The position numbers and the translations under genes were made by a program. Shown piece after piece: positions 20,575 through 62,890 of a stretch of 64,000 bases of DNA. Position 1 is the first letter of the stretch; each line of letters opens with the position of its first letter. The DNA is from Naegleria gruberi (Eukaryota). The notes beneath the pieces were generated by a model that was not told where the DNA came from, searched no databases, and was given only the letters and a program-made list of their open reading frames with translations. The stretch lies in assembly GCA_000004985.1 (NCBI GenBank), contig GG738849.1; one strand, written 5' to 3'.

Positions 20575-22449
20575 ATGTTTAGTTTTGAAGAGGAAACAAC
20601 AACAACAACATCGGTACCAGTTGCAAATGCTACTATTGTTGATGATGATGATCAAAAACAAGAAGGAAATGAAGAAGAATTTACTATACAGGGTGATCAA
20701 CAAGTAAAACAACAACAACAACCAATTAAACAACAATATGTTCCGGTTGAGACTATTGATATTAATTATGAAAAGGTTAAAGATTGGCTTGTAAATAGAA
20801 ACTTTTTACCTTCCGATTATGTAAAACAATTAAAACAAATTAGAGGTTATATTAAACATGCTTTTAAAGAATTGAAGGATAAACATGAAGAAGTGAAAAG
20901 CAAGGAATCAGAAAAACCAGTTACAGAATTATTAGAGAAAATTAATCAACTTTCTCAAGAATCACAAGATGAATTGGCAGTGATTGATTACTTTATAACG
21001 AAGGAAATTGTTCAAGTTTTGGAGAAGGCTGATTCATCGGAAGGAAGTGGTTATTTGTTTGGTCTTGTTGGTGGATCTAAGAGACTTAAATTGTGGAAAC
21101 ATGTTTTACAAAGTTATGAAGCAAACAATCTCCATTTGGCCGAGATTTCAGGATATATTATCCAGAATGTAAAATATGAAATTCCTTCCATGTCAAGCTC
21201 ACTTTTATCATTAAGAAATCAATTGGAAAGTATTGACAGAAAGGAAGACGATTGGAAGAGATCCCTTGAAATAGCCAAGAGAGAATTTACCGAGTCTTGT
21301 GAAAAACTTTCTATTAATAGGGAAAAAATTGAAAGCATGATTCAATTTGCTTCGAGTGGTTCTAGTGTTGGTGTTGATATTGAGGATGAAATTAAGAGTG
21401 CTGTATCAGATCTTCCACAATTTTATGAAAATATTGTAGTGTCATGTAAGGATGCCAAGTTCAAGAAGGCAGTTGATTATTATGAAGATTTTACATCATT
21501 TTTCAATAAGAACAAGGTTAGGGAAGATTTAACTTGTCTCAAGTTTGTCCTTTCCAATTTGGAAAAGTCGACACTTTCCATGTATGATTGGAAATTGTTC
21601 AACAATCAATCATTACCTTCTGTGGATGAAGAAAAAGTACAATCCTACATTCAAAAATTAAAAGATGAAGAAAGCAAGAAGGCCAACAAATCAAATGAAC
21701 CACAAATTGACTTTGGTGATTTTGAATTTTCAACTGAGGGCAATGTAGAAATTAATTGGGATACTGGTGTGGAAGAGAATAAGGAAATTGAAATCAAATT
21801 TGATGATGTTGCTCAAGAGAAAGAACTCGAGATTGATTTTGGAGATTTTAGTACTGATGATGTGGGTGGTTTTTCAATGGATTCTGTCGATATTTCCAGC
21901 AATACCAATGACGAAGACAGTATCAAATTGGTTGCAGAGTTGAGAATGAAATCCTTCCTTGATGATGAAGATGTCAGAGCTCTCTTCTCCAACAATCTCT
22001 TCCAATTATATGCCTTTGTACAACAACGAGTTATTGAGGTAACAAAGAATTCATCACTCGATAGTGAAATTTTCAGTTCTGCTCCAAACTCTATCAAATC
22101 CATCACCAAAGAAGAAATTCAAAACCTTATGCATGCAACTGGTAATGTAGTCACTACTCTCAATAACCATCGTTTCAAACAACTCATTCTCATCAAGACC
22201 TCGAAGAAGTTTGTGGAACGTCTCGTTCAATCCCTCACACAAAAGCTTGAAATTATGAGCAAGACAAAGACCAACTTGGAAGGTGTAGACTCCCAACGTT
22301 CCTCTCTCAATAATTCCATCAAGAACCAACAACCAACTGTTCTGAAAATCAAAAAGCAAACCAAAGACTATCAAGACTTTATTCAAAAGAATCTTTCTGA
22401 AAAGCTTGGAAAGAGAGTTGTTATTTTCGGTGAAATAAACAAGATTTAA
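20575..22449 (+). CDS. CDK5RAP3: CDK5 regulatory subunit-associated protein 3 homolog (CDK5RAP3/C53/LZAP, UFMylation pathway)
   Basis: Single 624-codon ORF. Blocks match CDK5RAP3: IDINYEKVKDWLVNRNF, LHLAEISGYIIQNVKYEIPSMSSSLLSLRNQLESI (compare human LVRNVNYEIPSLKKQI), and IDFGDFEFSTEGNVEINWDTG (compare IDWGDFGVE...IDWGIF). Confidence 0.85.
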   Translation: MFSFEEETTTTTSVPVANATIVDDDDQKQEGNEEEFTIQGDQQVKQQQQPIKQQYVPVETIDINYEKVKDWLVNRNFLPSDYVKQLKQIRGYIKHAFKELKDKHEEVKSKESEKPVTELLEKINQLSQESQDELAVIDYFITKEIVQVLEKADSSEGSGYLFGLVGGSKRLKLWKHVLQSYEANNLHLAEISGYIIQNVKYEIPSMSSSLLSLRNQLESIDRKEDDWKRSLEIAKREFTESCEKLSINREKIESMIQFASSGSSVGVDIEDEIKSAVSDLPQFYENIVVSCKDAKFKKAVDYYEDFTSFFNKNKVREDLTCLKFVLSNLEKSTLSMYDWKLFNNQSLPSVDEEKVQSYIQKLKDEESKKANKSNEPQIDFGDFEFSTEGNVEINWDTGVEENKEIEIKFDDVAQEKELEIDFGDFSTDDVGGFSMDSVDISSNTNDEDSIKLVAELRMKSFLDDEDVRALFSNNLFQLYAFVQQRVIEVTKNSSLDSEIFSSAPNSIKSITKEEIQNLMHATGNVVTTLNNHRFKQLILIKTSKKFVERLVQSLTQKLEIMSKTKTNLEGVDSQRSSLNNSIKNQQPTVLKIKKQTKDYQDFIQKNLSEKLGKRVVIFGEINKI

Positions 22450-22584
22450 TTTATTAAAATATATGCAATAATTGATTAGCCATTCCTATTAAGAGAATGC
22501 AAACTGGAACTTTCAGCAACTTACAAATTTTTTTAAAAAGGAAAATGAAAGTGATATTATGAAAAAAGAATATTGGAGATGAGT

Positions 22585-22690
22585 GCCGGGAATTGAATGG
22601 CTACCGGGAATGAAATTTCCTAATTTAGGAACCCGGGTCGCCAGAGTGACAGTCTGGAATGCTACCACTATACCACACCCGATTACATTC
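22585..22690 (-). pseudogene. tRNA-Asp(GUC)-like element with disrupted T-arm and acceptor stem: an intact-looking 5' half followed by a 30-nt palindromic insertion and duplicated B-box-like segments
   Basis: The minus strand reads TCGGGTG-TG-GTATAGTGGTAGCAT-T-CCAGA-CTGTCAC-TCTGG-CGAC-CCGGG-TTC, giving an acceptor 5' arm, D-arm and an anticodon loop with GTC as in eukaryotic tRNA-Asp. The T-loop is then interrupted by CTAAATTAGGAAATTTCATT (an inverted repeat TTCCTAA/TTAGGAA). This is followed by TTCATTCCCGG, then TAGCCA, then TTCAATTCCCGG. The 3' acceptor strand (CACTCAT) does not pair with the 5' strand. Confidence 0.45.
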
Positions 22691-22805
22691 ATATAGAAAT
22701 GATTCCTTAATTCGCCTTAGTATAATGTGCAATAATTAAATCATTTCGATCTATTAGATGAAGAGAGGAATGATCAAGAATCAAACATAATAAAACTAGT
22801 TATTA

Positions 22806-23768
22806 TTATTGGAATGGATTGTAGGTCATTTCATTAATTTTCCAAAATCTAAGAATGCCCTTATCTGAAATGGATTGAATAACTTGATTACTTGGAGTGT
22901 GAAGTACAAATTTACCTTCCAATTCCTTATTTTCATTGAAGGGGAAGAGGGAATGGAGAACTTGCCAAACCCCACTCGATTGTCTAATTCCAAAGCTTGA
23001 CATATACTTTCCAATAATTTCTTCAACTTGCACTCTTGAATAGTTTTGAGATTTTATCAAATCCAACAAGGAATCAGCCTGTGGCAATGGGAATTCTCTC
23101 TTATCAACCTGATAAATGAAATAATCTCCATTTACAACCATGAAACCCTTTGCAAACCTATTGACCACATTATTCTCAACTTCTCTTTCCAATTCCAGTG
23201 AAATATAAGAAGGATTAACATTTGATACGAATGCAGGTTGCCAAATCTCTCTATAATCATCACCATTAATTCCCTCTTCAACCATGAGAGGTTTTCTTGA
23301 CTCTGTATCCACATGTCCAATATCATAACTGCCTGTAAATGGTTGGAAGTCAATTTTACGATCCCATTGACATATCCATGCACTCTGATTGGCATGTGCA
23401 AAGCCAGCAAATGATTTCTGATTGGCCAATTGAAGCAACTCATCCCAAGAATATTGAGACAATGATGATTTTTGGTTTAAATAATTAGGTCTAGTAATTG
23501 GTATTCTAATATCACAATACATTGAATTGGTTTGAATATTGAATACAATGGTTGTGTTATCCACAATGTGACCGATTGGCTCTTCAATCCACAACCTTTT
23601 CCAAACATTTACCATTTGCTGGGGAACTGTGAATGTTGGAGAGCCGAATGTCATCGTTATCATGCATGCAAGGATGATGAAGATGATACTGCGCAATGAT
23701 ATTGGCAAGGTGATTTTATTGTTTGACATTTTTTTTGTGTAGTTTCCTCTTGTAAAAGGAGTAATCAC
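22806..23768 (-). CDS. hypothetical secreted or type-II membrane protein of 320 aa with an N-terminal signal-anchor
   Basis: Single ORF. Hydrophobic segment IIFIILACMITMTFG near the N-terminus. Several N-x-S/T sites. No recognisable family. Confidence 0.5.
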   Translation of the reverse strand: MITPFTRGNYTKKMSNNKITLPISLRSIIFIILACMITMTFGSPTFTVPQQMVNVWKRLWIEEPIGHIVDNTTIVFNIQTNSMYCDIRIPITRPNYLNQKSSLSQYSWDELLQLANQKSFAGFAHANQSAWICQWDRKIDFQPFTGSYDIGHVDTESRKPLMVEEGINGDDYREIWQPAFVSNVNPSYISLELEREVENNVVNRFAKGFMVVNGDYFIYQVDKREFPLPQADSLLDLIKSQNYSRVQVEEIIGKYMSSFGIRQSSGVWQVLHSLFPFNENKELEGKFVLHTPSNQVIQSISDKGILRFWKINEMTYNPFQ

Positions 23769-23910
23769 GGAGTAAGAAGATTCTCCTCATTCCCGCCAAA
23801 ATCATCTACCTTTATTTTGGATTCTTTTGGTTAAAGGTTATGAAATAGGATTAGATTTCGTTTGTATTATTCCAATATTCCACAACAAAAAATGTCTAAA
23901 AATCTATTTA

Positions 23911-32885: not shown

Positions 32886-33033
32886 ATCTTAATTTGCTTA
32901 TTACAAGTTGTTGAATAGGAAGGAGGAATTGGTGCAACAAGTGAACACTAAAATTTAAAGCCTTGCTTACTTGATAGCTTTGAGATTTTGGCGCTTAAAA
33001 AAAAATAGCTTTAGACACTGTACTTTGAGTAAA

Positions 33034-36000
33034 ATGATCGAGGAAGACATTTTTGAGGAAATTTCCTTGGTCAATTTGTTGAATGATATTGAGAAGACAA
33101 GGCCTTTGAAGAGGAGTGATCGAATTGGTGCAAATGGACAACAATTAGTAGCTACCACATCTAGATCAAGTTTGCTTATGGAGAAGGAGATAATTCCCCC
33201 TGATATTGTGCCTTCAATGAAGAAGATTCCTGCCGAAAAGCCCTCAAAGGTTGTGAATCCTCTCAAAATCCAAAAGCCTAAAAAGACAAAAATTGTATCT
33301 GGCAGGCAGCAAAACCATCACCAAAAGAACTCTCTTCAACAACAAGGAAAGAAGAATCAAGGCTTGAAAGAAAAAAATGTTAATCTGAAACGAAACTCTT
33401 CAAATGATGATAACAACGGTTGGAAAGGTCAATACGAGAACAATAATAATCATGATGAAAGCTCTCCCACCATTATGGAAGAACAAAATCTTGAAGGAAG
33501 GTTATCTGTATCATTGGTTCATCATCGTTTCAAAAACGTTTTCGGATTTGGTCACTTTAACAAGCTACAGTCAGCCTGTTTTCACAAAATTTATGATTCC
33601 GATGATAATGTTGTAATTTCAGCTCCAACAGGATCAGGAAAGAGTTGTTGTTTGGAATTGGGAATGATTAGAGTATTGGAAAAGTATTATGGAAAAAAGC
33701 AAGAACAAGGAAAACACAAGATTATTTACATTGCGCCAGTGAAGGCTTTGGTGCAAGAGAAGTACAATGAATGGAAGCAAAAGTTTTCCTCTCTCGGGAT
33801 TAATGTTGGAGAGTTGACTGGTGACACTCATCAAGTGACAGCAGAGACTTTGGAACCATTTGATATTATATTAACAACACCAGAGGTATGTTTTCATTGT
33901 GACGATTTATTTCCTTAATTTCTTAGAAATATGATTCTTTGAGTAGAAAATGGAGAGATGACAGTTGTTTGAAATTTGTGAAGTCTACAGAGTTGATTCT
34001 TATTGATGAAGTTCACTTGTTGAATGAGGTGAGTATTTTGAAATACCTTATTGTCATAATATTTTCTATTAGGAAAGAGGAGCTGTTTTAGAGGCAATAG
34101 TATCCCGTATCAAGAGCATTTCCTCAATTCAAAATCATAGCTCACGAATTATTGCTCTATCAGCTACAATTCCAAACATTGAGGATGTAGCCACTTGGTT
34201 GGATGTCTCACAATCAAATGTATTGGTATTTGGTGATGAGTATAGACCATCCAAACTTGAATTAAGGTCCATTGGATTTACAAATGATAAGAAGAATTAC
34301 TTTGCCTTTGAGAAAATGTTAGATAAGAAATTATTTGATATTATCAAATCTGAGAGTCACGAGAAACCGACTCTTGTTTTTTGTAGTAGCAGAAATTCCA
34401 CAATGAAGAGTGCTCAACAAATTGTCAACGATTCAAATTCTTGCAAAACCAATTACTTTATCACATCCAATGAACAGAAAGAGAGACTCACTGCAAAGTC
34501 CAAAAATGTTGAAGATCAACAACTCAGAGAAATGATTGTATTTGGAGTTGCCTTTCACTCAGCACAGCTTTCCTCTAACGACCGTAATATTGTAGAGTCA
34601 TTGTTTTCAAATAGGGAGTTGAGTGTAATTTGTACCACCTCCACCCTTAGTCAAGGTCTCAACACCCCAGCATATTTGGTCATTATCAAGGGAACCAAAA
34701 TCTATCAATCTGGAACCGGATATAAGGAATATCCCAGTATGAATGTTCTTCAAATGATTGGTAGAGCAGGAAGAGCTGGTTTTGAGGAGGCTGGTCTTGC
34801 TTTGATTTTAACTGAATCTAATATGGCCGAAACCTATCAGAACCTTGCAAATAACAATTATGTCATTGAGTCTACTCTTCACAAATACATATTCGAACAT
34901 TTAAATGCTGAAATATGCCTACAAAGTGTAAGAGATCTAACCGAATCTACCTATTGGCTTAAATCAACATTTCTCTATGCGAGGTAAGTAATTTCAATTT
35001 TGAGTACATTCCAACTTTTTGATAAGATTGCAGAAAAACCCAGAATATTACGGGCTCACAACTTCAGAAGACCTTGAGAAGAAAGTGGAAGAAATTCTCG
35101 AGAAGAGAATCACAGAGCTTGGTGATAATCAAATAATTAACATTGATGGAACCCTAATCAAACCAACTCCTCTTGGTCAAGTAATGTCAAGACTGTACAT
35201 TCAATACAAAACCATGTTGCTCTTACTGAGCTCTATTGGAAGTAAGATGAATGAAAAGAAAATTCTCCAACTTGCTTGCACTGCTGAGGAATTTGCAGAA
35301 TATGCCATTCGGCAAGGTGAAAAAGGAGTACTCATATCATTGAATCAAAATGAAAAGATCAAATATCCATTGAAGAAAAAGATAGAAATGGCAAGAGAGA
35401 AGGTTTTTGTCCTTGTTCAGAGCGTTCTTGGATCAATTACAATAGAGTCTGTCAGTTTGAGACAACAATCTGTCACCCTTAGATCACCTCTTTCGAGAAT
35501 ATTATCTTGCCTCTTTGAAATTGCAAAGAATTTGGGCTTTGGTGTGACCTGCAGAAATGCATTCAAAATGGCCAGAAAAGTGCAAGTTGGATCTTGGAAT
35601 TCAGGATCTACTCTTCCAACCATTCACTCCAGCCAGTACAAGAATGGTATTTCAGTTCAAATAGATATTGGATCTGTTCATAATGCACTTAATAAGTTTT
35701 CCTTGGTAACTATTGAAACTAAGGAGGGTAAAATTCTGGCCCACAGAAAGGTGTGTGAAAGTGGGAAGACATTTTTCAAGATTGACCCAAAGTCACTCCA
35801 CGGCGATTTCTGTTGTTTTATTTGTAACAGTTATGGTGATGAAAGTCAAACTCAAATTACTATTACTGAAAAACCAACCAATTTTAAACGAAAGTACGAA
35901 GATAATAAGGAAAATGAAATTCCCATCTCCAATCCTCCTAAAAAGAAGAATGCATTTACCAACAATCTTAATGAACTAAAACCCAATGTTGTCAATAAGA

Positions 36001-62084: not shown

Positions 62085-62550
62085 TTACAAAACCATTGAA
62101 ATATGCGCCATTATCAGAATAGACAGTAAAACTCCCAAATTATTACAAACTCTACCAATTCCCTTCATTATCGAAGAAGAAACCAACACGGCATTCGAAT
62201 CACTTATCAAATACAATAATTCATTTGCCTCCCTCACCCACATGTTCAAATTTACAATCGCCAATAAGACAATCAATAATCCGAATAGTATATGTTGATT
62301 CCTCGCCAAATATTTATATTGAATTGCATAATTTATCACAACAATTAAGAAGAGGAAAGCAAACACCAATACGAACGGTGCACTCATTCCGAGGGTGATT
62401 TGTCTGAAGAGTGAGAATTGTCCAATATTACTAGCAGCACCTGCTGATGAAGTTACATTACTGTTGGTTGTGTTGCTAAGTAAAGATGTCGTTATGTGTT
62501 GCAGGAGAAGCAAGTTTCGCGTTGTTGATAAGAGATGAAGTTGTTGTTCC
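62085..62550 (-). CDS. small multi-pass membrane protein (about 155 aa), a possible paralog of the 61225..61878 gene
   Basis: The track ORF 62085..62810 runs 5' into the tRNA-Thr gene, so it is trimmed to the first ATG (MEQQLHLLSTTRN..., start at about 62550). Hydrophobic segments FVLVFAFLFLIVVINYAIQY and ILFGLLIVLLAIVNLNMW echo the IILNYSGR / FLISITIF pattern of the neighbouring protein. Confidence 0.45.
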
Positions 62551-62723
62551 ATTGTTTTACAGATAAAAGCGAAATGAGTTATCTCAACCAAAAAGCAGAA
62601 CTTTCTATCATGGGTGAGTTTCATATGAATGTTGTTAGCATCGTATCTCTCCCGAAATGATATTATACGAATGAGTAGAATGGGTGGCAAGATTTCGAAT
62701 CTGTGGCTTAACAGCCAAAAGAT

Positions 62724-62797
62724 TGCCTCCCTTGGGAATCGAACCCAAGACCTCTGTCTTACTAGGACAGCGCTACTGCCAACTGAGCTAGGAAGGC
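62724..62797 (-). tRNA. tRNA-Thr (anticodon AGU)
   Basis: The minus strand reads GCCTTCC-TA-GCTCAGTTGGCAGTAGC-G-CTGTC-CTAGTAA-GACAG-AGGTC-TTGGG-TTCGATT-CCCAA-GGGAGGC-A, 74 nt. It has a 7-bp acceptor stem with one U-G pair, an anticodon loop CTAGTAA with AGT at positions 34-36, a T-arm GGTTCGATTCC (B box) and the A-box-like TAGCTCAGTTGG. Confidence 0.85.
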
Positions 62798-62890
62798 TTA
62801 CGGTAAGCATATAAAACGCCTTAATATCAATCTAATAAGAGCTATTGTTCTAATAATAGTCTGTGGTTTACAGATAACACAAAAGAAAAA

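Follow-up and report, generated by a model that had tools for sequence, protein, structure and literature searches.

The window analysed here, a 64,000-nt stretch with ~33% G+C and dense, mostly intron-free open reading frames (ORFs), is nuclear DNA of Naegleria gruberi, since the CDK5RAP3-family protein encoded at 20575–22449 (+; Pfam E = 5e-125) matches an N. gruberi protein from end to end with 100% identity. The stop codon of this gene at 22449 marks the left border of a 356-bp interval that separates two convergent genes and harbors a tRNA-like element. On the right, the interval is bordered by orf320 (22806–23768, −), an ORF of 320 aa that has no Pfam match and whose N-terminus is hydrophobic and signal-peptide-like; no recombinase gene was found among the ORFs neighboring the element. 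ARAGORN called a single tRNA across the 64-kb window, namely a canonical tRNA-Thr(AGU) at 62724–62797 (−; Rfam 53.9 bits), which is followed at a distance of 3 nt by a T4 run and overlapped by a mechanically defined ORF (62085–62810, −) that is probably a spurious extension. Elsewhere in the window, a C/D-box snoRNA-like match at 33399–33460 (+; Rfam snoR25, 31.4 bits against a gathering score of 50, E = 0.35–0.56), featuring a 5′ AUGAUGA C box and a terminal stem, falls within the ORF at 32971–33918 (+) and could be either a chance hit or an unannotated snoRNA.

A tRNA-Asp(GUC) body with an interrupted T-loop

The element is a tRNA-Asp(GUC) derivative located on the minus strand at 22581–22682 (Table 1). 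Read 5′ to 3′ from 22682, its tRNA part is composed of TCGGGTG-TG-GTAT-AGTGGTA-GCAT-T-CCAGA-CTGTCAC-TCTGG-CGAC-CCGGG-TTC. The strand then continues with CTAAATTAGGAAAT, followed by TTCATT-CCCGG-TAGCCA and, finally, TTCAATT-CCCGG-CACTC-ATC ... TTTTTT. The original prediction had recognized a tRNA-Asp in the 5′ portion, and the acceptor strand TCGGGTG, the D-arm, the loop CTGTCAC and the CCGGG strand all bear this out; the strand needed correcting, however, as the gene-like reading is the reverse complement of window positions 22581–22682, and the previously given end at 22585 cuts off the acceptor strand CACTC.

Table 1 Features of the tRNA-Asp-derived element and their positions in the window
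Feature	Position	Strand	Basis
tRNA-Asp(GUC) positions 1–56	22629–22682	−	Read directly; Rfam tRNA alignments; 51/54 identical to intact metagenomic genes
5′ acceptor strand TCGGGTG and D-arm GTATAGTGGTAGCAT	within 22629–22682	−	
A-box-like element TGGTATAGTGG, tRNA positions 8–19	22665–22675	−	Read directly
Anticodon GTC	22648–22650	−	Loop CTGTCAC, perfect 5-bp anticodon stem
Variable loop CGAC, T-stem 5′ strand CCGGG, T54-T55-C56	within 22629–22682	−	
T-loop/insert junction CCCGGGTTCCTAAATTAGGAAAT			
34-nt T-loop insertion CTAAATTAGGAAATTTCATTCCCGGTAGCCATTC	22595–22628	−	In-silico removal and Rfam alignment
Perfect palindrome TTCCTAA-A-TTAGGAA	22617–22631	−	Starts with T54-T55-C56
Proximal (extra) copy of the tRNA 3′ end, TTCATT-CCCGG-TAGCCA	22598–22614	−	18-nt-period repeat family D1
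Distal (authentic) 3′ end: T-loop TTCAATT, then CCCGG, CACTC, A71	22580–22597	−	
Distal copy, T-stem 3′ strand CCCGG	22586–22590	−	
Distal copy, acceptor 3′ strand CACTC	22581–22585	−	
T6 run, Pol III terminator-like	22562–22567	−	Separated from distal position 73 by a 10-nt spacer

Judging from the general Pol III type 2 promoter, TGGTATAGTGG may act as an internal promoter A box; in intact environmental tRNA-Asp genes, the same site reads TGGTATAGGGG or TGGTATATGGG. The T6 run is a candidate Pol III terminator, and T-runs are likewise found just downstream of the intact environmental tRNA-Asp genes and of the window’s tRNA-Thr.

Directly after T54-T55-C56, the T-loop is interrupted by 34 nt that consist of ~16 nt of filler and a diverged 17-nt copy of the gene’s own 3′ end. 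Originally put at about 30 nt, the interruption measures 16–17 nt up to the proximal copy of the 3′ end and 34 nt up to the distal one. Having TTC at both ends, the 34-nt insertion can be slid by up to 3 nt, with 22598–22631 as the equivalent placement. The filler completes a 15-nt palindrome (7-nt arms, 1-nt spacer), the first three bases of which are T54-T55-C56; the inverted repeat is perfect, as had been noted, yet its form is TTCCTAA-A-TTAGGAA instead of TTCCTAA-ATT-TTAGGAA. Palindromes of this size are common in the AT-rich N. gruberi DNA of the window: 54 perfect ones with arms of at least 7 nt were counted over the 64 kb (0.84 per kb), the one described here being the only representative of its class within 22400–22900.

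The two further B-box-like copies reported downstream, TTCATTCCCGG and TTCAATTCCCGG, are present, but rather than isolated B boxes they are tandem duplicates that include the acceptor 3′ strand. Proximal and distal copies (TTCATTCCCGGTAGCCA / TTCAATTCCCGGCACTCA) form a tandem repeat with an 18-nt period and agree at 72% of positions without gaps, 5 out of 18 being different. The string ATTCCCGG occurs just twice in the 64 kb, both times in the element, which also contains four of the five CCCGG sites of the window.

Homology to intact tRNA-Asp genes

As cut-offs for a tRNA, we used the gathering score of the Rfam model RF00005 (29 bits) and the ARAGORN default. When the proximal CCCGG closed the T-stem, the element scored 25.2 bits (E = 0.0054 in a 501-nt search), with three non-standard acceptor pairs in the alignment. 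A local alignment of 22581–22680 that used the distal CCCGG and CACTC instead reached 28.3 bits and comprised exclusively standard pairs at 3–7:66–70, while accommodating 38 nt where the T-loop of the model has 4. Both scores thus fall below 29, the second by just 0.7. ARAGORN, which the original prediction had named as a check, found no tRNA in the locus as encoded, be it at default, in the intron modes or at the default pseudogene setting; lowering the thresholds to 60–70% yielded only a truncated 68-nt call. The free minimum-energy fold of the 105-nt precursor contained no cloverleaf (z = −1.6), and cloverleaf-constrained folding was uninformative, the intact environmental tRNA likewise lacking a cloverleaf in its minimum-energy fold.

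Intact relatives were retrieved from metagenomes with a pattern covering the anticodon arm and the T-stem 5′ strand (CAGACTGTCACTCTG-N5-CCGGGTTC). This pattern stops at GGGTTC, exactly where the insertion begins, and is therefore blind to what follows; it matched eight contigs, all eight with uninterrupted 7-nt T-loops. Four of them (L004, L005, L006, L010) carry an identical, ARAGORN-confirmed 71-nt tRNA-Asp(GTC), TCGGGCATGGTATAGGGGTAGCATTCCAGACTGTCACTCTGGCGACCCGGGTTCGATTCCCGGTGCTCGAG, a fifth (L009) has this sequence truncated by the end of the contig, and a sixth (L008) encodes a variant tRNA-Asp with compensated acceptor changes. The remaining two contigs are of prokaryote type. Poly-N and poly-Q/H tracts in ORFs, together with a G+C content of 35–50%, suggest the contigs bearing intact tRNA-Asp genes to stem from various amoeboid protists. 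On L004, L005, L006, L009 and L010, the same 71-nt tRNA-Asp is embedded in very different flanks and G+C contexts (35–50%), and AA directly precedes position 1 in every copy. The exact 71-nt sequence, this suggests, may be common to several distinct eukaryotes.

Compared with the intact metagenomic genes, 51 of the first 54 nt of the element are identical; the three differences affect positions 6 and 7 and one D-loop base, leaving one difference across positions 8–56. With the 34 nt taken out, identity amounts to 62/71. The anticodon GUC with C38, the G10-U25 pair and the 5-bp anticodon stem are all present and identical to those of the intact environmental genes. A D-stem oddity, A12/C23, is shared by the intact genes as well and hence no sign of decay. 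By both the Rfam E-value of 0.0054 and the 62/71 identity, the resemblance is more than chance, indicating that the element is tRNA-derived. A mitochondrial or NUMT origin was rejected, as the body matches nuclear-type tRNA-Asp genes.

The distal copy as the ancestral 3′ end

The two copies of the 3′ end differ in how they match the tRNA body. Distal CACTC pairs perfectly with G3–G7 of the 5′ acceptor strand; the proximal acceptor-like sequence TAGCCAT makes four of seven pairs. It had been stated that the 3′ acceptor strand no longer pairs, which is correct for 1:72 and 2:71, both broken, but not for CACTC. Relative to the environmental genes, positions 6–7 have changed from CA to TG and distal positions 66–67 from TG to CA, meaning that pairs 6:67 and 7:66 were altered on both sides and still pair (C-G/A-T to T-A/G-C). 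The distal T-loop, TTCAATT, is canonical. Upon in-silico deletion of the 34 nt (22595–22628), ARAGORN at default settings called a 71-nt tRNA-Asp(GTC), while joining the tRNA body to the proximal copy instead produced no default call.

Taken together, the CACTC pairing, the double-sided changes at 6:67 and 7:66, the canonical T-loop and the T6 run after a 10-nt spacer show that the distal copy is the true 3′ end of the ancestral gene. This gene spanned 22682 to ~22578 (−) and ended in the distal T-arm and acceptor strand, followed by the putative T6 terminator.

Lesions cluster in the 3′ third

Even the de-inserted product is defective, with T/T at 1:72, C/A at 2:71 and C at position 73: positions 71–73 read ATC, as opposed to GAG in the intact relatives. 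The best acceptor stem available comprises five pairs (3–7:66–70), whereas the intact homologues all have seven pairs plus G73, a major identity element for AspRS in yeast. As encoded, the T-loop would measure 41 nt with the distal and 23 nt with the proximal CCCGG, against a canonical length of 7 nt.

The internal promoter may be affected, too. Taking the B-box motif to be GTTCRAnYC (PMC3159450, PMC5391098), none of the three B-box-like motifs of the element (GTTCCTAAA, TTTCATTCC, ATTCAATTC) fits this consensus, two copies lacking G53 and the third lacking R57/A58. In Dictyostelium discoideum, a single C56G change in the B-box motif abolishes TFIIIC-dependent targeting (PMC5391098, PMC3159450). 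Of the promoter parts, the A box and the T6 run are present and a B box matching GTTCRAnYC is absent. With A box, anticodon arm, G10-U25 and T6 intact, the locus could nevertheless be transcribed.

All of these lesions lie in the 3′ third, the 5′ two-thirds being almost untouched. Had an old pseudogene decayed neutrally and uniformly, such clustered damage would not be expected. An intact 5′ part next to a scrambled 3′ part would imply either recent damage, a single complex event, or a 5′ part kept by gene conversion or selection; of these, we are inclined towards a lesion that is recent or arose in one complex step, or towards gene conversion having preserved the 5′ part. The 5′ portion of the element may still retain a residual role.

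The element in related genomes

Gene order around the locus is shared between N. gruberi and Naegleria lovaniensis (contig PYSW02000004.1, here L001), comprising orf461, CDK5RAP3, a variable segment and orf1636. In N. gruberi, the variable segment holds the tRNA-like element and orf320; in its N. lovaniensis counterpart, an unrelated gene for 344 aa is found on the opposite strand. Window positions 22450–23900, compared with 11888–13913 of L001, hence constitute a small variable island inside conserved gene order. The tRNA-like sequence was absent, even at E ≤ 1, from the syntenic interval of N. lovaniensis, from a second Naegleria-like contig (L002) and from the Willaertia magna contig (L003). 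The relatives compared are distant (62% and 45% protein identity), so this absence shows only that the element is no old, conserved feature. As a side observation, positions 1–325 of L001 encode a piggyBac-type transposase (DDE_Tnp_1_7, with a weak SAP match), ~10 kb from the CDK5RAP3 orthologue.

A probable decayed tRNA-Asp gene

We consider the locus, with a probability of roughly 80%, to be a decayed and most probably non-functional pseudogene of an N. gruberi cytosolic tRNA-Asp(GUC) gene. A decaying tRNA gene was among the options offered by the original prediction, and it is the one that the analysis favors: homology to a functional tRNA family (tRNA-Asp) is clear, several disabling lesions in the 3′ third are incompatible with tRNA structure and identity, and the locus ranks below threshold in both tRNA finders. 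What is seen would almost certainly be ordinary gene decay, not a new type of tRNA or intron.

As for its history, the T-loop-coding DNA may have undergone a single complex event, or a small number of local ones such as replication slippage or error-prone break repair, which duplicated 18 bp (T54 to A71) in tandem and added ~16 nt of filler that, by chance, completed the 15-nt palindrome with T54–C56. Separately, positions 71–73 would have changed from GAG to ATC. A T-loop of 41 (or 23) nt would leave T54–A58 and the D-loop/T-loop elbow unable to form, and a residual Pol III transcript of ~120 nt, reaching to the T6 run, would be expected to be degraded rather than processed or charged as tRNA-Asp.

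The locus resembles eukaryotic nuclear tRNA pseudogenes, which fall below tRNAscan-SE/Infernal thresholds, in its homology to a functional isoacceptor gene, its lineage-specific presence, and lesions that break the cloverleaf and identity elements and may break the internal promoter. It differs from them in that damage is confined to the 3′ third and consists of an 18-nt tandem duplication plus palindromic filler, as opposed to scattered point mutations.

Alternative explanations

Unlikely, though faring best among the alternatives, is membership in a dispersed, tRNA-Asp-derived Pol III repeat family of SINE- or MITE-like nature, with the palindrome and the duplicated tail as family features. 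The number of tDNAs reported for N. gruberi, 924, is unusually high (PMC2888827), and a 13-nt direct repeat (12/13 matches; ATATGCAATAATT at 22461–22473 and ATGTGCAATAATT at 22725–22737, both +, 264-bp spacing) brackets the element as a possible target-site duplication. However, by our own estimate ~0.3 such flanking repeats are expected by chance per 500 bp of DNA with this composition, and 42 nt separate the upstream repeat from the start of the tRNA, which is not how the target-site duplication of a SINE is placed. While a tRNA-related head with an A box is shared with tRNA-derived SINEs, there is neither a tRNA-unrelated body nor an A-rich or simple-repeat tail, and the T6 run after a 10-nt spacer resembles an ordinary tRNA-gene terminator. 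Nor were copies demonstrated: neither the 64-kb window nor the 48 kb examined from three relatives contained a second one, and searches of the window and L001–L003 with the insert, with the B-box tail and with the entire intergenic segment gave low-complexity matches only. The T-loop/insert junction and the tRNA body had no match in prokaryotic-genome and viral collections, which hold no Naegleria. Our literature search for Naegleria tRNA introns, SINEs or tRNA pseudogenes returned nothing beyond the tDNA count, and thus no such SINE. The SINE-like option raised initially is therefore disfavored.

Very unlikely is an element bound by TFIIIC/Pol III that fulfills a non-tRNA role, either as an ETC-like site or insulator between convergent genes or as the source of a 5′ tRNA-fragment-like RNA. 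Such a role would be in line with the strong preservation of the A-box-bearing 5′ two-thirds relative to a messy 3′ third, with the position in the 356-bp interval between convergent genes and with three B-box-like motifs in a row, yet zero of these three fit GTTCRAnYC and the element is not conserved at the N. lovaniensis syntenic site. The original prediction had likened the downstream copies to the external B boxes of dictyostelids, and the two systems do have in common that, in an amoeboid protist, a B-box-like sequence recurs downstream of the internal B box of a tRNA gene. In D. discoideum, 66% of intact tRNA genes have an external B box that matches GTTCRAnYC and is located ~41 bp downstream (PMC3159450), rather than forming an acceptor-bearing duplicate within or abutting the gene. 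Here, by contrast, the copies are off-motif, spaced by 0–18 nt and include acceptor sequence, the gene is broken, and the host is a heterolobosean, unrelated to dictyostelids. The analogy breaks down because the distal copy is the gene’s own T-arm and the proximal one a tandem duplicate, neither of which fits the motif. The intact tRNA-Thr of the window also lacks a convincing external B box: a weak B-box-like sequence, GATTCGAAATC, lies 23 nt downstream (62691–62701) and deviates from GTTCRAnYC.

We give only a slim chance to a functional tRNA-Asp with a non-canonical 34-nt T-loop intron (53/54 to 56/57), removed by tRNA splicing endonuclease and ligase in the manner of Cyanidioschyzon merolae or nucleomorph tRNAs. 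Exact removal of the 34 nt does yield a default ARAGORN tRNA-Asp(GTC), no damage is seen in the 5′ two-thirds, the A box or the terminator, and T-loop introns exist in eukaryotes, as exemplified by the 22-nt hBHBh′ intron at 53/54 of Cyanidioschyzon merolae tRNA-Ile(UAU) (PMC3728597; also PMC9602550). Against this, scanning every pair of cut sites for a bulge-helix-bulge (BHB) motif—two 3-nt bulges, or one in the relaxed form, around a 4-bp helix—revealed neither a full nor a relaxed BHB in the four equivalent, product-preserving registers, in which the central helix had 2, 0, 2 and 2 of 4 pairs. Full BHB motifs arose only at cuts that would destroy the tRNA by deleting the anticodon arm, and splice registers to the proximal copy give defective products. 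A missing BHB is no absolute proof, given that ectopic introns of the Guillardia nucleomorph mostly lack one (PMC3728597). Still, even the ideal spliced product would keep the 1:72 and 2:71 mismatches and C73 in place of G73, the ARAGORN intron modes find nothing, and the insert occurs in zero of the eight homologous metagenomic genes, retrieved by a scan that is blind past GGGTTC. Moreover, half of the putative intron duplicates the 3′ end of the downstream exon, which argues for a DNA rearrangement and not an intron. The locus thus shares with the ectopic BHB introns of C. merolae and Archaea an extra T-loop sequence whose exact removal restores a tRNA-like sequence, but differs from them in lacking BHB geometry, in an insert that duplicates the exon and in a restored product that is defective; the T-loop intron contemplated at the outset is not supported.

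The odds are just as slight that the locus is expressed and its insert handled independently of a BHB, by nucleomorph-type splicing, possibly with Thg1-like 3′–5′ repair of the two terminal pairs, or that it gives rise to a stable tRNA-like RNA or 5′ fragment. BHB-independent processing, or a stable RNA or 5′ fragment, would explain the near-perfect 5′ two-thirds alongside the scrambled 3′ third. Nothing that we found, however, points to a mature tRNA from this locus.

Least probable of all is that the sequence reflects an error of assembly or sequencing, or a peculiarity of one allele, and that the real locus is an intact tRNA-Asp gene: sequencing and cloning errors are well known to arise at palindromes and at short tandem duplications, but an artefact would not yield diverged copies (differing at 5/18 ungapped positions) and separate point differences such as the 71–73 change, which is independent of the insert.

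Two further mechanisms were considered for the rearrangement and rejected. A transposon excision footprint (piggyBac TTAA, Harbinger TWA, hAT hairpin P-nucleotides) was dismissed because the geometry fits none of these cleanly. For an att duplication by an integrase, the geometry is not a clean fit either, and no recombinase is encoded nearby. The attL/attR repeats that integrases leave in bacteria and archaea likewise duplicate a tRNA gene from its T-loop to its 3′ end in direct orientation, but here the two copies abut without an integrated element in the middle, the filler sits upstream of the first copy, and the setting is a eukaryotic nuclear genome.

Implications

Should a mature tRNA be made from this locus after all, it would extend BHB-independent tRNA intron processing, or cytosolic repair of the acceptor end, to Heterolobosea. 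If instead, as we favor, the locus is a tRNA-Asp(GUC) pseudogene, it matters little by itself, being one more among the many tRNA-like loci of N. gruberi and one that standard annotation would miss. It would then illustrate one way in which a tRNA gene can be put out of action, namely by a short tandem duplication with added filler.
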